A stretch of 64,000 nt of DNA, taken from NCBI GenBank assembly GCA_026770705.1, contig JANJGN010000004.1, positions 69,192,001 to 69,256,000 on the forward strand, given 5' to 3'. The stretch's first letter is position 1; the number at the start of each line of letters is the position of its first letter. Below are positions 6,900 through 59,784 of this stretch, one piece after another. The stretch comes from Isurus oxyrinchus. Its lineage: Eukaryota. The position numbers and the translations under genes are program-made. The notes beneath the pieces were generated by a model. The model was not told where the DNA came from, searched no databases, and saw only the letters and a program-made list of their open reading frames with translations.

Positions 6900-8285
6900 A
6901 ATTGGGGGCTGGTCTGGGAAGTTAACAAAATGGGGGATCTCGCACAGGCACTGTTCGTAACAAATTGGGGGCACGGTGCTGAAATAGATCCCACAGATGA
7001 AACGAAAGAATTAGAGTGAGGGAAGTAAATTGTTCCTTTGAAAGCAACTTAAAATAAACCACAAAAAGGTTTTCTTGAGTCTGCCCTACTAAAGTGTAAA
7101 AATGTCCATATTTGATGTCAGTGGAGGGTATGTTAGTTCTGAAAATTTAACAGTTCTGTTGCTCGGAGAGCTAAAAGAGCTAGCGATGCATTTAGGATTA
7201 GAATTTCGCCCAAAAGCCAGAAAACCCAAAATGTTAAAAGGGGTGGCCAACAGTGCAAATTGAGGACGTTGAAATGGATAGAGTAGTGATAGAGAAATTA
7301 GAATTTCAGGAAAGAGAAAAGGAAAGGGAAAGAGAGAAAGAGGAAAGACAGGAAAGGTCACAGAGAGAAGAGAGAGAATTTCAGGACAGAGACAAGGAAA
7401 GGGAGTTTAAACTAAAACAGCTCAAGCTGAAAGGCAGGAATCCTACTGTGTCCCTTGAAGACACCACTAGCTCAGACGTAAGGGCTGAGGCAATCCGGTT
7501 TTCTCATTTAATCCTTAAGTTTCATGAAGCAGAGGTGGAAGCCTTCTTTATCTCTTCCAAGCAGTTAGCACAGCCATTCCAACATTGGTCCCAACTACTG
7601 CAGGGTAAACTTTCAGGAAAGCTCATGAGGTTTACTCCCTCTTGCCTGAGCAAAGTGTCAATGACTAAGAAACAGCAAAAAAGGCTGTTTTAAGCGAGTA
7701 CCAGTTCGTGTCAGGGGCACCGTCAGAAATTCCGTACCCTTGGGAAACAGCCTGACCAGATGTACCTGGAAGTTAAAAGGCTTAAGCAACTTCCTTTTGA
7801 CCAGTTGTTGAAGGCGCTTAAAACAGAAGCCACTTACGAAAAGCTCTATGAAATAATTCTCCTTGAGGAGTTTAAAAACTCCATACCCTTCCCAATAAGA
7901 ACACACCTAGAGAAACAGAGGGTAACAGGGGCCAGACAGGCAGCCACGCTGGTTGATGATTATGAGCTGATCAACAAATCCTTGTCCCAGAAAAGACCCA
8001 CCGTTAGTCATCCCCAATCAACAGGAAAGGATAGAGATTTAGAGTGTGATAGAAAACTGAGCACCCATGGGAGAGAAAGAAATGCTGGGGGCCCTCCCCA
8101 GGATAGAAAGGGCGGTGATGAGATGAAAAGTTAGGCCAAGAAGCCTGTGTGTTTTAACTGCCGAAAGGAAGGGCACCTGCTGGAGGTTACAGGAAAAACC
8201 AGTGGGATTTATTGGGGCACATATTCCCCATGCAAAGAATGGGAGTCAGTCAGAGAGCGTAGCAGACCAAGTTATGGGTTGAGCT

Positions 8286-9861
8286 GTGACCATGAATCCC
8301 TGTAGATGCACTCCTGAGAGTGTGGGTGAGGTTAAACAAATATCTGTGAGATATGTGGGCTTTATATCTGAAGGGAGGGTGGCTACATTTTCCCAGGGTG
8401 AAGCGAGTGTGCCAATAGTGATACTGAGGGATACAGTGGCCAGCCAAACTCTACTGCCAGGAAAAGGCATGACCTTTCCACTAGAGAGTGCAGTAAGTGC
8501 CAAGGTATCGGTAAAGGGGATTGAAGGAGGGGATATGCCCATTCTCTTATACCGGGTGCATCTGGAGAGCAACCTTGTGTCACAACTGTTGACTGTAGGA
8601 GTTGTCCCTGATTTGCCTGTGGACAGGATCAACCTGCTCCTCAGCAATGACCTGGTGGGATCAAAGGCAACAGCATCCCCAGTGGCATCAGAGAAGCCAA
8701 GTGAGATCAGGGAGACACAACAGCTGCAAGAGAAAGTGCCTGGCATTTTCTCTGACTGTGTGGTAATGCAGTCTATGGCCAGACAAGCTCCTTCAGTGGA
8801 GGCTGAAGTGGCAATGCTGGCAGATGATCCTACAGTCTGGTTATCTGAAATATTTTTTGGGAGTCTAGAAGGCTCTAAGGAGGTAATAAATAGATCTTCC
8901 TTGGGAGCGGCCCAGCAAACTGACCCACTGTTAAAAGCATTAGCTCAGACTGCACATGCTGAGGCCGAAGCAGAGGCAGAAACAGTCCTTGATTGCTACT
9001 ACATTAAGAATGACATGCGAATGAAGAAATGGAGACCCCCTCACAGACCTGCAAATGACGAGTGGGCAGTGATCCACCACGTAGTGGTGTCACTGAGGTA
9101 CCATAGGGAAATATTATGCCTAGCTCATGAAATTCCAATGGCTGGGCATGCCGGTATACGCAAAACCCAAGCCTGCATCAGCCAGCATTTTTACTGGCCA
9201 CACCTCCAGAGGGATATAAGATTTTGCAGAGCCTGCCACACCTGCCAGGCTGTGGGAAAACCCCAACCTGCAATACAACCTGCACCAACGATTCCTGTGC
9301 TGGCTTTTGGGGAACCATTCAGCAAGGTGTTAGTGGACTGTGTGGGGCCCCTGCCCAAAACAAAAGGTAGCTACCAGTATATTATTACCATCATGGACAT
9401 GCCTACCCGCTTCCCACAGGCTGTTCCCTGAGAACCATATCTGAAAAAACAGCGTGGGGGGATTAACCTAATTCTTTACCAGATATGGTCTGCCCACCGA
9501 GATCCAGTCAGATCAGGGCACAGATTTCATGTCCAAAATATTCCAGGAAGTCATGGGTAACCTGGGTGTGACCCAGCTGAAGTCTTCAGCCTATCACCTG
9601 CAATTGCAGGGGGCACTAGAACAGTACCACCAGACCCCAAAAACAATGATCAGGGCATACTGCCAAGAGTACCCCCATGACTGGGAGCCCCTTTTCGCCA
9701 CCAGGGATTCACCCAATGAATCCACCGGGTTTACTCCATTCGAATTAGTTTTCGGACACCAAGTGCGAAGGTCTCTGAAACTGATCAAGGGGAAGTTTTT
9801 AGAACAGAAGGAGAAAGTGAACATGTTAGACTTGGTAACAGTGTCCAGGAGCAACTCATGA
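8286..9861 (+). pseudogene. Gypsy pol remnant: protease-like region and integrase (zinc-binding and rve core), frameshifted
   Basis: ORF track 8286-9431 and 9529-9861: AHEIPMAGHAG, FCRACHTCQ, LVDCVGPLP, SAYHLQLQGALEQ, STGFTPFELVFG. Confidence 0.85.
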
Positions 9862-12298: not shown

Positions 12299-13044
12299 TA
12301 AAGATAAGTACTACCCAGGGCTGCAAAGATACAAACAATCTCACAGTTCTCCATTCCTACAACAAAACGGGAAATCATGAAGTTCTTGTGGATGTGTGGT
12401 TCTACCGTAAGTTCATCCCAAACTTCAGCACAGTAGCCGCCCCGCTGACAGACATATTACAGAAAAAAGCAAAGGTAGTATGAACTGAGAAATGCCAGAC
12501 AGCTTTCAAAAAGCTGCAAGCCATTTTAATAGGCAAGTGACATCAGGATCGGGGCTGTCCTCCTCTAGGAAGACAAATCAGGGATAGAGAGACCAATCAG
12601 TTACTTCCCCCAAAAAACTAAACAAGCATCAGAAAGGGTACTCCACTGTTGAGAAGGAAACCCTCGGTTTATTAGTTGCTCTCACACGCTTTGAGATATA
12701 TTTCCGAAATGGATAGAGAGAGACCGCAGTTTATGCTGACCACAACCTATTAACCTTTGTGGAAAGGTTTAAGACCCAGAATGCCAGGCTATTCCATTGG
12801 AATTTGTTTCGCCAACCATACCACCTAAAAATCACCCACTTTGCCAGGAAATCAAATGTGATTACAGGCACCCTGTCCAGAACTTAAAGAGACCCAGTTA
12901 GAACTGAAGAGATAATATTGGCCAAGGGTAGGAGAATGAATGTGTGTCTGTGTTTTTTTTTGCCTTGTAACAAAATGAAGATTAACCAAAATGGCCAGCA
13001 TGTTTAATATAAAAACAAAGAGAACTGCGGATGCTGGAAATGCA

Positions 13045-14112
13045 AAACAAAAACAGAATTACCTGGAAAAACTCAGCAGGTCTGGCAGCATCGGCGGAGA
13101 AGAAAAGAGTTGACGTTTCGAGTCTTCATGACCCTTCGACAGAACTTGATTTCGAGTCCAGGAAAGAGTTGAAATATAAGTTGGTTTAAGGTGTGTGGGG
13201 GGGGGGGGGCGCGGAGAGAGAGAGAGAGACAGAGGTGCTTGTGTAGACAAACAAGCAGTGATAGAAGCAGATCATCAAAAGATGTCAGTGACAATGGGAC
13301 AAAAGAACACATAGGTGTTAAAGTTAAAGTTGGTGATATTATCTAAACGAATGTGCTAATTAAGAATGGATGGTAGGGCACTCAAGGTACAGCTCTAGTG
13401 GGGGTGGGGGGAGCATAAAAGATTTTAAAATATTTAAAAATAAGTGGGAAAAGAAAAATCTGTAAAATTTATAGGGAAAAAAAAAAGGGGGAAAAAAAAG
13501 GGGGGGGAAACAGAAAGGGGGTGGGGATGGGGGAGGGAGCTCACGACCTAAAGTTATTGAATTCAATATTCAGACCGGAAGGCTGTAAGGTGCCTAGTCG
13601 GAAGATGAGGTGTTGTTCCTCCAGTTTGCGTTGGGCTTCACTGGAACAATGCAGTAAGCCAAGGACAGACATGTGGGCAAGAGAGCAGGGTGGAGTGTTA
13701 AAATGGCAAGCGACAGGGAGGTTTGGGTCATTCTTGCGGACAGACCGCAGGTGTTCTGCAAAGCGGTCGCCCAGTTTACGTTTGGTCTCTCCAATGTAGA
13801 GGAGACCACATTGGGAGCAACGAATGCAGTAGACTAAGTTGGGGGAAATGCAAGTGAAATGCTGCTTCACTTGAAAGGAGTGTTTGGGCCCTTGGACGGT
13901 GAGGAGAGAGGAAGTGAAGGGGCAGGTGTTACATCTTTTGCGTGGGCATGGGGTGGTGCCATAGGAGGGGGTTGAGGAGTAGGGGGTGATGGAGGAGTGG
14001 ACCAGGGTGTCCCGGAGGGAGCGATCCCTACGGAATGCCGATAAGGGGGGTGAAGGGAAGATGTGTTTGGTGGTGGCATCATGCTGGAGTTGGCGGAAAT
14101 GGCGGAGGATGA
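13045..14112 (-). repeat. Left inverted arm of the PLE (copy of the GIY-YIG region and 3' UTR/pLTR)
   Basis: Mirror of 16099-17165; ORF-track translations match on both sides. By eye only two differences were found: a substitution (13090 vs 17120) and a homopolymer length (A10 vs T9). Confidence 0.97.
13108..13146 (-). ncRNA. Second copy of the hammerhead-like motif, in the left arm
   Basis: Exact reverse complement of 17064-17102. Confidence 0.75.
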
Positions 14113-16670
14113 AATTCCACCCCTCATCTTTCGAACCCACCCAGGATTACCGGTATCTCCGGGACATAAAACGTTTCTCAGACTGCTGTTCCCGTCACAT
14201 TCTGAAATCCACACTCAGTGCCATGCGCCGCCGTATGAACACACTCGACCTCTCCCTCCAGCAGCACCGCCGTACCCTTTTTCAAAGCTGCGCGTGCCCC
14301 CAGTTTCATTTTATCCTTCGGCTCATCCGACGCCTCAACAAGAAACTTTTTCTCTTTCTCTCAACTGCTAAGGAACGCAAGCTCCAACAACTCATCGACA
14401 CCAACACCCATCTAGGACCCTCCACCCCAGCCTGTCCCTCCGTCCCCACCCCATCTTCCAATCCCAGCCCCAGCCGTGTATTCACTATACCCCCTGACCT
14501 TCCCCTCTCCGATGCTGAACGTTCAGTGCTCAGCAAAGGACTTAGTTTCATACCCTTACGCCCTCACCTCAATGAATTTCGGGCTCGGCATGATACTGAA
14601 CTCTTCTTTCGCCGTCTTCGTCTCCGGGCTCACTTCTTTGGGCAGGAGTCCTCTCCCAGTTCAACGGATCCTTTTACCCATCTCCAATATTCTCCCTCCA
14701 CCTGGACCCCTCCCTCTGGATTCTTACCTTCTCTTGATCTTTTCATTGAGAACTGTCGGCGCGACATTAGTCGTCTCAATTTCTCTGCTCCTCTCACCCA
14801 TTCTAACTTGTCTCTCTCTGAACTTACTGCACTCCATTCTCTCAGGTCCAACACTGACATTGTCATCAAACCCGCTGACAAGGGTGGTGCTGTTGTTGTC
14901 TGGCGCACTGACCTCTACCTCGCGGAGGCTGAGCGTCAACTCGCAGACACTTCCTCCTACCTCTCCCTGGACCATGACCCCACCACTGAACATCAAGCCA
15001 TTGTTTCCAGGACTGTCACTGACCTCATCTCCTCTGGGGATCTCCCTCCCACAGCTTCCAACCTGATAGTCGCCCAACCTCGGACGGCCCGCTTCTATCT
15101 CCTACCTAAAATCCACAAACAGAACTGCCCCGGTAGACCGATCGTCTCAGCTTGCTCCTGCCCCACAGAACTCATTTCTCGTTATCTTGACTCCCTTCTC
15201 TCTCCCCTTGTCCAGTCCCTTCCCACCTACATCCATGATTCCTCTGACACCTTACGTCACATCAACAATTTCCAGTTCCCTGGCTCCAACCGCTTCCTCT
15301 TCACCATGGACGTCCAATCCCTCTACACCTCCATCCCCCACCAGGATGGTCTGAGGGCCCTTAGCTTCTTCCTCGAACAGAGGCCCGAACAATCCCCATC
15401 CACCACTACTCTCCTCCGTCTGGCTGAACTTGTTCTCACGTTGAACAATTTCTCCTTCAACTCCTCTCACTTTCTCCAAATAAAAGGTGTGGCTATGGGT
15501 ACCCGCATGGGCCCCAGCTATGCCTGTCTCTTTATGGGATATGTGGAACATTCCTTGTTGCAGTCCTACCCCGGCCCCCTTCCACAACTTTTTCTCCGGT
15601 ACATCGATGATTACTTCGGTGCCGCTTCATGCTCTCGTCGGGACTTGGAAAAATTTATTAATTTTGCTTCCAATCTCCACCCCTCCATCATTTTCACGTG
15701 GTCCATCTCTGACACTTCCCTTCCCTTCCTTGACCTCTCTGTCTCAATCTCTGGTGATAGACTGTCCACTAATATCCATTACAAACCCACCGACTCCCAC
15801 AGCTACCTCGACTACAGCTCCTCACACCCCGCTTCCTGTAAGGACTCCATCCCATTCTCCCAGTTCCTTCGCCTTCGTCGCATCTGTTCCGATGATGCTA
15901 CCTTCAAAAACGGTTCCTCTGACATGTCCTCCTTCTTCCTTAACCGAGGTTTTCCACCCACGGTCGTTGACAGGGCCCTCAACCGTGTCCGGCCCATCTC
16001 CCGCGCATCCGCCCTCACGCCTTCTCCTCCCTCCCAGAAACATGATAGGGTCCCCCTTGTCCTCACTTATCACCCCACCAGCCTCCGCATTCAAAGGATC
16101 ATCCTCCGCCATTTCCGCCAACTCCAGCATGATGCCACCACCAAACACATCTTCCCTTCACCCCCCTTATCGGCATTCCGTAGGGATCGCTCCCTCCGGG
16201 ACACCCTGGTCCACTCCTCCATCACCCCCTACTCCTCAACCCCCTCCTATGGCACCACCCCATGCCCACGCAAAAGATGTAACACCTGCCCCTTCACTTC
16301 CTCTCTCCTCACCGTCCAAGGGCCCAAACACTCCTTTCAAGTGAAGCAGCATTTCACTTGCATTTCCCCCAACTTAGTCTACTGCATTCGTTGCTCCCAA
16401 TGTGGTCTCCTCTACATTGGAGAGACCAAACGTAAACTGGGCGACCGCTTTGCAGAACACCTGCGGTCTGTCCGCAAGAATGACCCAAACCTCCCTGTCG
16501 CTTGCCATTTTAACACTCCACCCTGCTCTCTTGCCCACATGTCTGTCCTTGGCTTACTGCATTGTTCCAGTGAAGCCCAACGCAAACTGGAGGAACAACA
16601 CCTCATCTTCCGACTAGGCACCTTACAGCCTTCCGGTCTGAATATTGAATTCAATAACTTTAGGTCGTGA
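14109..16670 (+). CDS. PLE polyprotein: reverse transcriptase + Cys-rich linker + GIY-YIG endonuclease (853 aa from the junction ATG; native N-terminus probably truncated)
   Basis: KPADKG, FYLLPKIHK, GRPIVS, TMDVQSLYT, GVAMGT, RYIDD, LPFLD; linker CPRKRCNTC; VYCIRCSQCGLLYIGETKRKLGDRFAEH...GLN. No stops or frameshifts. The ORF track extends it to 13986 through antisense-arm sequence. Confidence 0.93.
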   Translation: MKFHPSSFEPTQDYRYLRDIKRFSDCCSRHILKSTLSAMRRRMNTLDLSLQQHRRTLFQSCACPQFHFILRLIRRLNKKLFLFLSTAKERKLQQLIDTNTHLGPSTPACPSVPTPSSNPSPSRVFTIPPDLPLSDAERSVLSKGLSFIPLRPHLNEFRARHDTELFFRRLRLRAHFFGQESSPSSTDPFTHLQYSPSTWTPPSGFLPSLDLFIENCRRDISRLNFSAPLTHSNLSLSELTALHSLRSNTDIVIKPADKGGAVVVWRTDLYLAEAERQLADTSSYLSLDHDPTTEHQAIVSRTVTDLISSGDLPPTASNLIVAQPRTARFYLLPKIHKQNCPGRPIVSACSCPTELISRYLDSLLSPLVQSLPTYIHDSSDTLRHINNFQFPGSNRFLFTMDVQSLYTSIPHQDGLRALSFFLEQRPEQSPSTTTLLRLAELVLTLNNFSFNSSHFLQIKGVAMGTRMGPSYACLFMGYVEHSLLQSYPGPLPQLFLRYIDDYFGAASCSRRDLEKFINFASNLHPSIIFTWSISDTSLPFLDLSVSISGDRLSTNIHYKPTDSHSYLDYSSSHPASCKDSIPFSQFLRLRRICSDDATFKNGSSDMSSFFLNRGFPPTVVDRALNRVRPISRASALTPSPPSQKHDRVPLVLTYHPTSLRIQRIILRHFRQLQHDATTKHIFPSPPLSAFRRDRSLRDTLVHSSITPYSSTPSYGTTPCPRKRCNTCPFTSSLLTVQGPKHSFQVKQHFTCISPNLVYCIRCSQCGLLYIGETKRKLGDRFAEHLRSVRKNDPNLPVACHFNTPPCSLAHMSVLGLLHCSSEAQRKLEEQHLIFRLGTLQPSGLNIEFNNFRS

Positions 16671-17063
16671 GCTCCCTCCCCCATCCCCACCCCCTTTCTG
16701 TTTCCCCCCCCTTTTTTTTCCCCCTTTTTTTTTCCCTATAAATTTTACAGATTTTTCTTTTCCCACTTATTTTTAAATATTTTAAAATCTTTTATGCTCC
16801 CCCCACCCCCACTAGAGCTGTACCTTGAGTGCCCTACCATCCATTCTTAATTAGCACATTCGTTTAGATAATATCACCAACTTTAACTTTAACACCTATG
16901 TGTTCTTTTGTCCCATTGTCACTGACATCTTTTGATGATCTGCTTCTATCACTGCTTGTTTGTCTACACAAGCACCTCTGTCTCTCTCTCTCTCTCCGCG
17001 CCCCCCCCCCCCCACACACCTTAAACCAACTTATATTTCAACTCTTTCCTGGACTCGAAATCA

Positions 17064-17102
17064 AGTTCTGTCGAAGGGTCATGAAGACTCGAAACGTCAA
17101 CT
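17064..17102 (+). ncRNA. Minimal type I hammerhead ribozyme-like motif with variant core
   Basis: AGTT-CTGTCGA-A-GGGTC-ATGAA-GACTC-GAAAC-GTC-AACT: stem I AGTT/AACT, stem II GGGTC/GACTC, palindromic ACGT in place of stem III, GUC cleavage triplet. Core reads CUGUCGA rather than CUGANGA. Confidence 0.75.
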
Positions 17103-18430
17103 CTTTTCTTCTCCGCCGAAGCTGCCAGACCTGCTGAGTTTTTCCAGGTAATTCTGTTTTTGTTTAGCATGTTTAATATGTTATACTGTACATGGTACCT
17201 TTGTAATTGATGCCTCTGGCAATGGCAAATTATTAGCCTCATTTTTGCCATATATGCAGCTGTCCCTAATAAGCATGAATGATATAAAGGATTGAGGTTG
17301 TGCTGATGATGCACCACTGGGTTACTGTATCTTTAGATCTTGGCCAGTACGGACACAGCCCTAATAAGAAGACACAGACTAAGAGTGGCACCATTATACC
17401 CGAAAGAATATTAAGCAAAATTTGAATGTGAAAAAACGGGCACATCGTTCCTGTGCAAATCTTATTTGAGGAGTTGCAGGATCGATTGCAAGAGGAGCAA
17501 ACATGTAGCTAAGTGTACACAAAATATAAATTTCACTCATTATAGCGTCTGCAATAGGTTGGAAATCTGATTTCAGCCCCAAAGAGACTTGGGGGCCAGT
17601 TTTCCTCCCCTTCGTCCCAGTGTGAGTCAGGCAATGTGCACTTGAAAGTGATCTAATTGCAACATACTCGAGCATGGATGACCTTCTATGTACAGTTCAT
17701 TTGCAGGGGTTGATGTTAAGCCAGTGGGCACCACAGAGCGGCAGTCCTTAAAAGCCTCCATTGGTGCAAATTCTTGCTGGCTTCTTGTCATTCTGGCTGA
17801 CATCAAGTCTGAAGAGGTTGTCAGCTGTCACTTCTCAGATTTCCCATTCTCTTTTGGAAAACCCCCTTCACACAAGGCAGCTGGGACAGCATGGAAATAA
17901 CGTAGAAGGCATCAGGATGTGGCTCCCCCATCATTTACATGAAATGACACTGAATAAATAAATCTCTACTTGTGATGGGGGCATCCTGGAAGGGAAAAAC
18001 AGTAAAAGCCGGGAAATAAGAACACTGGTACAAACTGGTCTCATCTACCTTAAAATAGAACACCAATAAAAACTGGCAAATAAGAGGTCTGGTCCGAGTT
18101 GTTTTTTTTCCCTTCTGGGCTGTTCTGGTGCAAAGGTCTTTTGTGTCAGAGCCAAATCAGCCCTCCATGTTTAATATTCCTTCACAGCAAATAAAATTTG
18201 CTAGTAATGTAACTTGTAAATGGCTGCTGCAACTGTATTCTGGGAGAAATTCAGCTGTGTTTGTAACTTGGTGTTGAGAAGTCAAGATGCACATCACAGT
18301 GAGTACAATATAGCTGATCACAACTCGGCATGTGATTATTAATAATCTGTTGCCAAATCCACCTGGCGCTAGAAACAATTAGGGATAGTCAACAAGCCCT
18401 GAATTACTTGGTCATCTGGTCATATTGCTG

Positions 18431-24222: not shown

Positions 24223-27200
24223 TATAAGACCGTAAGATGTAGGAGCAGAAGTAGGCCATTCAGCCCATCAAGTCTGTTCCACTTTGTAATGAAATCATGG
24301 CTGATCTGATAATCCTCAACTCCACTTTTCTGCCTTTTCCCAATCACCCTTGATTCCCTTACTGATTAAAAATCTGTCCATCTCAGCCTTGAATATACTT
24401 AATGACCCAGACTCTGCAGCCCTCTGTGGTAAAGAATTCCACAGATTGACTATCCTCTGAGAGAGGAAATTCTTCCTCATTTCTGTTTTAAATGGGCAAC
24501 CCCTTTACTCTGAGATTAGGCCCTCTGGTCCTAGACTCTCCCACAAGGGGAAACCTCTCAGCATCTACCCTGTCAAGCCCCCTAAGAATTTTATATGTTT
24601 CAATAAGGTCGCTTCTCATTCTTCTGAACTCCAATGAGTACAGGCCCAACCTACTCAATCTCTCCTCATAAAAAAATCCCTCCATACCCAGAATCAACCT
24701 AGTGAACCTTCTCCGGACAGCCTCCAATGCCAGTATATCTTTCTTTAGATAAAGGGACCAAGCTCTTCACAGTTTTCCAGGTGTGGTCTAACTAGTGTCA
24801 TGTATAGTTTTAGCAAGACTTCTCTATTTTTATACTACATTCCCTTTGAAATAAAGGCCAACATTCCATTTGCCTTCTCTATTACTTGCTGAACTTGTAT
24901 GTTAGCTTTTTGGGATTCATGCACAAGAACTCCCAAATCCCTCTGTACTGTAGCCTTCTACAGTCTTTCGCCATTTAAATAATATTCAGCTCCTCTATTC
25001 ATCCTGCCAAAGTGCATAACCTCACATTTTCCCATATTATATTCCATCTGCCAAATTTTTGTCTACTCACTTAACCTGTCTATATCCCTCTATAGGCTCC
25101 TTGTGTAATCCTCACCACTTGCCTTCCCACCTATTTTTGTGTCATTTGCAAACTTGGCGATTGTACATTCACTTCCCTCATCCAAGTCATATATATGGCT
25201 ATATTGTAAATAATTGAGCCCCAGCACTGATCCCTGTGGCACTCCACTAGTTATAGGTTGCCATCACAAAAATGCCCCCCTTATCCCAACTCTCTGTCGT
25301 CTATTAGTTGGCCAATCTTCTATCCATGCTAAAATACTACCCCCAGCACCATGGACTCTTATTTTATTAAGTAGCCTTGTGTGCGGCACCTTATCGAATG
25401 CCTTTTGGGAATCCAAATATGTTATGTCTACTGGTTCCCCTTTATCTATCTTGCTTGTTACCTCTTCAAAGAATTCTACTAAATTTGTTAGGCATGATTT
25501 CCCCTTCATGAAGCTATGCTGACACTGCTTGAATAGATTATGTATTTCTAAATTCTCTGCTATTACATTCTTTATAATAGACTCCAACATTTTCCCAATA
25601 ACAGATGTTAAGCTAACTGGCCTATAGTCACCTGTTTTTTGGCGCCCACCCTTTTTGAATAAGAGTGTTACATTGGCCGTTCTCCAATCCTCTGGGACTT
25701 TTCCAGAATCTAAGGATTCTTGAAAGATTGCTATCAGTGCATCAACTATCTCTGTAGCTACTTCCATTAATATCCTAGGATGCAACCCATCAGGTCCAAA
25801 GGACTTTTCAGCTTTTAACCCCACTAGTTTCCCTAGTAACTTTTCTCTAGAAATAGTTATTTTATTTATTTCCCCCCCTCCCCCTCCTGCTTTTGCCCCT
25901 TGATTATTTAGTATTTTTCAAATGCGACTAGTATCTGTTACCGTGAAGACTGGAGCAAAGTTTTTATTCAACTTCTCTGCCATTTCCTTGTTCACCATTA
26001 TTATTTCCCCAGCTTCATTCTCTAAGGGGCCTATGTTCATTTTGGCCTCTCTTTTACTTTTTATATATATTTAAAGAAGCTCTTACTGTCCGTTTTTATA
26101 TTACTTGCTTGCTTACCCTTAAAGTTAATTTTCTCCCTCTTTTTTTTGGTCATCATTTGTTGTTTTTAAAACTTTCCCAATCCTCTGGCTTACCACTAGT
26201 CTTTGCCACATTGTATGTTTTTCCTTTCAATTTGATATTGTCCTTAACTTCCTTGGTTAATCATGGTTGGTTTATCCCCTTCCTTGAAACCTTCTTCCTC
26301 ACTGGGATAATCTTTGTTGTGAGTCATGAACTATTTTCTTAAACATCTACCATTGTTCATCAACCGTCTTTTCTGTTAAACTGCTTTCCCAGTCTACTCC
26401 AGCCAACCCTGCCCCCATTCCATTGTTTCCCTTATTTAAGTTTAGCACAGTTGTTTCCGACCCAAGTTTCTCACTCTCAAACTGAATGCTAAATTCTACC
26501 ATGTTATGGTCACTGTTTTCTTGGGGATCCTTTACTCTGAGATCATTTATTAAACCTGCCTTATTACATATTACCAGATCCAAAATAGTCTGATTCCTGG
26601 TTGATTCACAACATATTGTTCTAAGAAACTATCCCAAACATACTCTATGATTTCTTGTTCGTGTCTACTTCTGCCAATTTGATTTTCTCAATCTACATGA
26701 AGATTAAAGTCACCCATGATTAATGTACTGCCTTTTTTACATATCCTCATTATCTCCTGATTTACTCTCTGTCCTACAGTATAGCTATTGTCAGGACCCC
26801 TATAGACTATTCTCACCAGTGTCTTCTTCCCCTTGTTATTCCTTACCTCAACCCATACGGATGCTACATCTTCCGATCCAAGATCCTTTCTTGTTATCGT
26901 ACTTATTCCATCTCCTACTAACAAAGTTACCCCACCACTCTTTCCTTCCTGACTGTGCTTTCGAAAAGTCACATACCCCTGAATATTTAGTTCCCAGTTT
27001 TGATCTCCTTGCAACCATGCCTACATAATGGCTATAAGATCGTATCCATTAACCTCTATTCGTAACATTAATTCATTTATTTTGTTCTGAATAATACATG
27101 TATTTAAGTAAAGAGTCATTAATTTTGCCTTTTGAACATTTTTATCCCCTTTTGACCCTACCTGCTGCTTTTTTTTTATATTTGCACACTCTGTCCCTTC

Positions 27201-27401: not shown

Positions 27402-27807
27402 TAAAAGCAAAATACTGCGGATGCTGGAAATCTGAAACAAAAACAGAAATGCTGGAAAAACTCAGCAGGTCTAACAGCATCTGTGGAGGGAGAAACAGAG
27501 TTAACATTTCAAGTTCATATGGCCCTTCTTCAGAGCTGAAGAGAAGTGGAAATGTGATGAAATTTATACTGTTTAAGGGGGGTAGGGCAGGTGGAGCTGG
27601 ATAGAAGGCCAGTAATAGGTGGGGACAAATGAGGGACTGACAAAGATGTTATGAACTAAATGACAAAGGGCGTGCTAACTATCAGCACCTCTTTTAGCAT
27701 TAACCACTATCATTAACACACTCTTAGTCCTTTAGTTCATTACATCTTTGTTATATGGACTCAAAACGTTAACTCTGTTTCTCTCTCCAGAGATGCGGCT
27801 TGATTGC
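27402..27807. mobile_element. Non-coding miniature PLE made of two inverted pLTR fragments
   Basis: Left end is homologous to 13011-13146; 27716-27750 and 27757-27800 are inverted copies of left-arm segments; TSD ACAGTTCAAGTGAA (27388-27401) / ACAGTTCAAATGAA (27808-27821). Confidence 0.85.
27499..27537 (-). ncRNA. Degenerate hammerhead motif in the mini-PLE
   Basis: Minus strand AGCT-CTGAAGA-AGGGCCATATGAACTT-GAAATGTT-AACT; canonical CUGAAGA core with decayed stems. Confidence 0.55.
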
Positions 27808-59671: not shown

Positions 59672-59784
59672 TTTCTCTTTAGTTTTGAAGAAGAGTCATA
59701 CGGACTCGAAGTGTTGCCTCTGTCTTTCTCTCCACGGATGCTGTCAGACCTGCTGGGTTTTTCCAGCAATTTTTGTTTTTGTTT
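59672..59784 (+). mobile_element. Solo PLE pLTR fragment with a decayed hammerhead
   Basis: Homologous to 17060-17165; flanked by CATGATCCTA (59662-59671 and 59785-59794). Confidence 0.85.

Follow-up and report, generated by a model that had tools for sequence, protein, structure and literature searches.

The window analysed here, a stretch of 64,000 nucleotides from Isurus oxyrinchus, carries at 12997-17179 a young copy of an abundant Neptune-type Penelope-like element (PLE), 5'-truncated and inserted head to head. The features of this retrotransposon copy are listed in Table 1. The insertion is directly bounded by two identical copies of the 14-bp target site duplication (TSD) AGCATGTTTAATAT, which has no third occurrence in the 64-kb window. 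The repeated regions of the two arms differ by one substitution (13090/17120) and a 1-nt homopolymer gap at 13486 (99.8% identity in the arm alignment), and the tail is found on the left arm only. The outer boundary of the tail is blurred by 2 nt, because the family sequence continues with AT, as does the TSD from that side. In full the arms are unequal (1.05 vs. 3.04 kb), each having sequence absent from the other, and they are joined at 14110-14112 over the shared TGA. The observed/expected CpG ratio of the ORF was 0.68 and that of the arms 0.56, vs. 0.27-0.31 for the flanks, and the right flank is without a close second copy elsewhere in the assembly. An exact TSD, near-identical arms joined near 14112, a one-sided tail of 34 nt and retained CpGs had all been proposed in a preliminary description of this DNA, and each was confirmed. 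The ORF had also been called intact. It is stop-free from 14109 to 16670, but its first 66 of 918 codons are missing, and the ATG at 14109 is a product of the junction, where the TGA is common to both arms, and not the natural start.

Table 1. Features of the insertion and its immediate flanks, in window coordinates.
Feature	Position	Strand	Remarks
Left half of putative palindromic target motif	12990..12996	+	AATGGCC; fits R-7, R-3, C-1; misses C-5
Left 14-bp TSD copy	12997..13010	+	exact repeat of right copy
34-nt tail, end of arm primed at outer (long) start site	13011..13044	-	
Inverted arm: 3' UTR/pLTR and endonuclease-coding ORF end	13045..14112	-	arm alignment
Left copy of minimal hammerhead-like motif	13108..13146	-	mirror of 17064-17102
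Arm junction	14110..14112	.	3-nt overlap TGA common to both arms; accidental ATG at 14109
5'-truncated stop-free ORF, 852/918 codons	14112..16670	+	
Telomerase-like RT, YIDD	15600-15611	+	within ORF
Forward arm of repeated region, ends at inner (short) start site	16099..17165	+	arm alignment
CX4CX2C linker	16263-16289	+	within ORF
GIY-YIG endonuclease with CCHH motif	from about 16374	+	within ORF
Minimal hammerhead-like motif	17064..17102	+	stem I AGTT/AACT, core CUGUCGA, stem II GGGTC/GACTC, GAAACGUC; read by eye
Right 14-bp TSD copy	17166..17179	+	
Right half of putative target motif	17180..17186	+	GTTATAC; fits G+1, Y+3, Y+7; misses G+5; flank single-copy

Elsewhere in the window lie two older relatives with 77-81% identity, at 27414-27537 (-) and 59681-59784 (+), one tailed and one not. 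Two further open pieces were read by eye: 8283-9431 (+), which we take to be LTR-retrotransposon protease/integrase-like, and 25264-25917 (-), presumably LINE reverse transcriptase-like.

Domain searches with the ORF matched RVT_1 (E = 5.9e-8) and GIY-YIG (E = 7.9e-4, below the Pfam cut-off). Conservation was counted on an alignment of 86 sequences. The catalytic residues Y834, G836, R845, and E894 were conserved in 99-100% of 82-83 homologues, the endonuclease CCHH residues C827, C830, H849, and H865 in 96-100%, and the linker residues C784, C789, and C792 were invariant across 83-84 aligned sequences. A search for solved structures related by sequence found none. The predicted structure of a full-length natural copy (pLDDT 92.9) had telomerase structures as all of its top ten Foldseek matches. 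The family has the features by which endonuclease-containing (EN+) PLEs are recognised: a single ORF with reverse transcriptase (RT) and C-terminal GIY-YIG endonuclease, an RT closest to telomerase in the Foldseek search on the model, partial tandems forming pLTRs (L036, L039, L120, L144, L146) besides inverted 5'-truncated copies throughout, and a tail of 30-40 bp (34 nt here, with two clustered ends in the family). The near-invariant CX4CX2C linker and CCHH motif point to the Neptune or Nematis clade (PMC8557442). Neptune PLEs have a CX2-5CxxC linker between RT and endonuclease, a CCHH motif and a vertebrate host, and Nematis shares the linker (PMC8557442). It is from the vertebrate host that we infer Neptune rather than Nematis. 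The closest named proteins are from bamboo shark (65-69% identity), in keeping with a cartilaginous-fish host.

Two exact 28-base markers had 62,288 and 7,273 matches in the 4.98-Gb assembly, and the window carries the rarer one. The family thus amounts to about 70,000 marker matches, and the window copy is an ordinary member, since 30 of 71 position-ordered family loci share its structure with a TSD. A 38-mer spanning the tail variant of the window had 841 exact genome matches. A T-to-A variant noticed in the first 40 matches was discarded as an ascertainment effect of the query. In tandem copies the natural ATG lies 38 nt beyond the tail, and the full-length ORF has 918 codons. Thirteen sampled copies had this natural start: three were fully open, two left the fetched stretch and eight had early stops. 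The open copies (3/13) could provide a Neptune-type enzyme for assay.

A total of 170 loci were fetched in three sets: set A (39 loci around the best matches to the right-arm end), set B (71 loci covering the first 100 marker matches in positional order), and set C (60 loci covering matches 11-75 of the 841 tail matches). The 3' ends of the family were non-random, as the preliminary description would have it, and formed two clusters, hereafter the long (tailed) and short (untailed) ends. In sets A and B and the window both outer ends were recovered for 59 of 76 head-to-head junctions. A TSD of at least 10 nt was present in 53 of these 59, and all 53 were single-tailed; the six without such a TSD included two short/short pairs and one long/long pair. 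Across all sets there were 86 distinct head-to-head pairs with an exact TSD of at least 11 nt (87 at first, before a double count of L135 was removed). Every one had one tailed and one untailed end (86/86), with no long/long or short/short pair among them. For those tail-ascertained focal ends of set C that had a TSD and whose partner could be scored, the partner was untailed in 29/29. The loci L042, L080, and L094 were rejected as exceptions, a TSD of at least 10 nt being absent. L182 was likewise rejected as a two-tail exception, having mirrored flanks and no TSD. L182:1-6164 is an inverted duplication that includes host flank and carries two tails, the outcome of either later rearrangement or assembly fold-back.

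The structures in set B were inverted with a TSD and both ends at 30 of 71 loci and of another kind with a TSD at 16; 25 were unresolved. Beyond the pairs, 26 further TSD-flanked copies were retained after 10 candidates had been dropped (repeat of at least 20 nt, or not abutting the element). Single-arm copies ended at the long site in eight cases and at the short site in six, each with a TSD, and the six short-ended copies lay 0-6 nt from it. Ten were tailed copies whose partner begins 4-780 nt further inside than the short site, one consisted of a short copy and a tiny partner bearing the tail, and the last (L070) had no tail at either end. At L144, L146, and L120 a single insertion contained multi-unit tandem arms (up to two full units at L144) reading through upstream start sites.

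That the window structure is an assembly fold-back artefact is hardly credible. The structure is known from the assembly, with no long read seen spanning both arms, and one sampled locus, L182, does resemble a fold-back. Against this, the window flanks are not mirrored and the right one is single-copy, the repeat is direct, the arms differ in sequence at two places and also at both of their ends, and the same structure recurs at 86 sites. In L1 twin priming both target strands prime cDNA, which yields an inversion inside one TSD. Applied here, one cDNA would start from the RNA 3' end and a second internally, with the inverted piece derived from upstream transcript. The inversion inside a TSD and the short junction overlap would fit this, but L1 twin priming begins at poly(A) and divides one transcript into parts that do not overlap, whereas in the present family the region copied is common to both cDNAs and the two start sites are fixed and internal. 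Rather than dividing a transcript, the two arms each hold the same 1067 nt; many pairs consist of two arms of ~100 nt (18/76 stop at the hammerhead edge), there is no poly(A), and transcription units continue past the tail. We consider twin priming of this kind highly improbable.

In tandem copies the sequence does not end at the tail but goes on into the 5' UTR and ORF. The tail end therefore lies inside the transcription unit and is not the RNA 3' end. Both starts are thus internal, unless the RNA is processed there as for the anole element. The preliminary description had two target nicks each prime a cDNA, one of them from the RNA 3' end; two start points 34 nt apart stand, and the placement of one at the 3' end does not, since the tandems run on. 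The start-site region is U-rich and ends 38 nt before the ATG. This region folded no better than shuffles (z = 0.30), which gives no ground for claiming a stem-loop. Just before the short start site, CAG/GTAATT at 17146-17154 looks like a candidate splice donor.

Two internal RT starts bounding the tail have been reported in vitro for PAc, a Poseidon element of the green anole, whose enzyme nicks and extends both strands and is predicted to form a helical dimer through a long N-terminal helix (PMC11167929). PAc shares with the present family the two internal starts and the predicted dimer, and its pLTR has a hammerhead to which the hammerhead-like motif here may correspond. It belongs to a different clade, it has its starts within the ORF, 111-118 nt in and part of an AC-rich stem-loop, whereas ours are U-rich and precede the ATG, and it prefers ATT where the shark family has RNCNRNC/GNYNGNY flanks. 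The excerpts of PMC11167929 report no start-site difference between strands for PAc and do not link the two starts to inverted insertions.

The lengths of the longest TSD repeat in the 86 pairs were 12 nt in 3, 13 in 20, 14 in 34, 15 in 21, 16 in 5, 17 in 2, and 18 in 1; a single fixed length of 12, 13 or 14 was rejected as a misfit to this distribution. The flanks form a palindromic motif, RNCNRNC-(13-15)-GNYNGNY. Among 172 half-sites a purine was found at -3 in 151, C at -5 in 76, A at -7 in 82, and C at -1 in 77. The pattern was equal at both nicks, fell to background level at -8 to -12, and kept its register for 13-, 14-, and 15-bp repeats. It was replicated in 26 held-out sites (52 half-sites), with a purine at -3 in 40 (25 expected), C at -5 in 18, a purine at -7 in 36, and C at -1 in 19. 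A depletion of T at -1 was not relied on, because it is partly forced by the choice of the longest repeat. Primer-template matching was higher at both ends than in a simulation without pairing, with 1.69 vs. 0.75 at the long end (n = 61 of 86) and 1.16 vs. 0.80 at the short end (n = 80 of 86). The microsatellite bias hypothesised for Neptune (PMC8557442) was not seen in the 86 listed TSDs.

Outer family ends were followed by element sequence in 14 of 300 cases, eight of them at two self-insertion hot spots in the pLTR, at window 16881-16900 and 16938-16960, the second with a perfect GTTTGTC half-site (hot-spot loci L037, L175, L199, L038, L080, L117, L125, and L152). As these self-insertions show, the pLTR is a sequence that the enzyme can cut. 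This counts for the suggestion in PMC8557442 of an EN-mediated resolution, in which a palindromic double-stranded precursor would have its ends trimmed unequally by the endonuclease before integration. That proposal gives no reason for strictly unequal cuts, and the primer-template matches at both ends together with the in vitro start sites point to priming instead; we regard it as very improbable.

The lengths of the two arms correlate (rho = 0.83 in 76 simple pairs, 0.66 in the 28 with both arms >200 nt). In 18 of the 76, both arms stop at the 5' edge of the hammerhead motif. Outside this cluster 18 of 49 pairs stop at most 16 nt apart (permutation mean 1.9, maximum 11), and with both arms >150 nt there were close stops in 8 of 31 pairs vs. 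0.9 expected. The median stop offset of the near pairs was +3 nt, not the +36 predicted by equal cDNA length. In the remaining 31 of 49, the window locus included, the arms end apart. No priming order was found among these: the short arm was the further-reaching one in 17 pairs, against 14 for the long arm (p = 0.72). Non-CpG polymorphisms shared between arms numbered 162 vs. 40 by permutation (16 vs. 4.6 in the young subfamily), and subfamily markers were discordant between arms in 5 of 65 pairs. Four of the five discordant pairs had been ascertained by the rarer letter and may represent later mutations; L177 had not. A comparison of the distance between arms with that to the nearest copy gave a weak result, the arms being closer in 16 of 28 pairs, several of them distorted by indels. 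Gene conversion, or descent from a single source locus, would also leave variants common to both arms. The 63 exactly resolved junctions comprised 30 with inserted bases and 33 that were blunt or overlapping, with a mean overlap of 1.5 vs. 0.66 by chance. This pattern fits the end-joining of two 3' tails (microhomology-mediated repair).

Shared stop points and shared variants are also what fold-back copying predicts. The long site alone would then prime, and the cDNA would snap back, copy itself, stop before the tail and jump to the second overhang. Self-priming has been proposed for head-to-head copies (PMC3846280), and such a course would account for the single tail and for the partners that end deeper than the short site. 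Unequal arms would have to be ascribed to a later deletion at the palindrome centre. Of the 31 unequal pairs, 17 have the untailed arm extending further 5', the window locus among them, and each of these would need that extra deletion. The six single-arm copies with a short end lie within 0-6 nt of their TSD, pairing at the short end does not exceed that at the long end, and the anole enzyme starts reverse transcription at both sites in vitro (PMC11167929). We therefore think fold-back copying unlikely. We would also not expect, at a similarly low probability, a dimer with two RNAs, one per subunit, in which asymmetry forces one short and one long start. This arrangement fits the symmetric motif, the predicted dimer, the 31/49 unequal pairs and the five marker-discordant pairs; it needs an extra rule to bar long/long and short/short pairs (0/86), and it does not predict a shared 5' coordinate.

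Residues 1-330 were predicted to homodimerise through antiparallel helices 78-107, with a score of 0.48 vs. 0.00 for the best of three controls, a contact agreement of at least 55% between runs, and a pLDDT of at least 64. The mark used was reached by 21/30 solved homodimers and 0/23 monomers (in eukaryotes by 17/29 and 0/30), and by only 1/7 eukaryotic chains without a solved relative; the score is a model confidence. The predicted N-terminal dimer resembles that predicted for the anole protein.

We propose that a dimer nicks both strands, at the window locus 14 bases apart, and that a single RNA with two internal start sites is the template for both free ends, a reading to which we assign a probability of about 0.6 and whose basis in this protein is the sequence, the family statistics and the predicted dimer. 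Two endonuclease domains in two-fold symmetry would each nick 5' of GNYNGNY and leave 3' overhangs. Aided by 1-3 nt of pairing, the overhangs would prime at different sites, one of them at the inner, U-rich site and its counterpart at the outer one. Both RTs would copy the same stretch of RNA, the rear one displacing the first cDNA, and the cDNA 3' ends would be joined by host end-joining (in the window over TGA), with gap filling giving rise to the TSD. A single surviving cDNA would yield an ordinary single-arm copy with either end. In its most specific form, which we put at even odds, a homodimer would read RNCNRNC-N13-15-GNYNGNY, cut with a 13-15-nt stagger, and have two polymerases copy one RNA simultaneously from starts 34 nt apart. 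If so, the inverted pLTR, the one-sided tail and the TSD would be explained in one step, and the head-to-head copy would be a primary product and not a rearrangement.

An architecture of tail and inverted repeat is drawn as typical of PLEs (PMC8557442, Fig. 2) and described for Pen2a_Av (PMC3846280). In the canonical units of these excerpts the tail is optional or frequent, whereas here it is on exactly one end in 86/86 pairs. The TSD is 13-15 bp here vs. 8-10 bp in rotifer examples (PMC8557442, PMC3846280), and the window copy differs from the canonical unit in having no direct upstream pLTR. How PLEs make inverted repeats and tails is a named open task in PMC8557442, and the in vitro study left later integration steps unvalidated (PMC11167929, excerpts). 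The window locus alone adds little; the value lies in the family statistics, with which any model has to agree: no insertion with two tails, arms that share a 5' stop coordinate, a stagger of 13-15 nt and symmetry of the cut motif. The literature searched did not contain the strict one-tail count, the shared stop point or the target motif, parts of which older Penelope papers may hold, and the excerpts of PMC9977147 and of a 2026 retrozyme preprint had nothing on tails.

The subfamily is young: of 63 sampled segments of at least 1 kb, most of them from young-subfamily sets, 40 match the window ORF at 99% identity or more. The further claim of activity now goes beyond the data. At 7e-10 per generation, a rate from another species, the epaulette shark (PMC10587355), a single substitution over 1067 nt allows an age of anywhere from 17,000 to 3.7 million generations. 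In X1 and X8, runs on two samples from two studies, the contig lying on 12891-13010 departs exactly at the left TSD end into 474 and 939 letters, respectively, that are not on the element. This departure at 13010 likely marks the empty site. The flank in X1/X8 differs by about 1%, and the marker letter of the window made up 2% of reads in a run of the same label vs. 10% of exact matches here; because of these two differences the samples may be from related species.

The motif at 17064-17102 fits by eye the minimal hammerhead architecture described in PMC4209133, where such hammerheads are reported in Neptune pLTRs; an Rfam search found no hammerhead. Its core (window 17068-17074) is CUGUCGA throughout the large family, and an older relative in the window has CUGAAGA. 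The consensus of the hammerhead core is CUGANGA. The 5' edge of the motif (17060-17065) is the preferred 5' truncation point of the family, used by 45 of 152 arms, and may be a transcript start or an RT stop. A ribozyme cut site was rejected as its origin, as the expected cut would follow 17098. Truncation at the hammerhead edge yields many mini-elements of ~105 nt.
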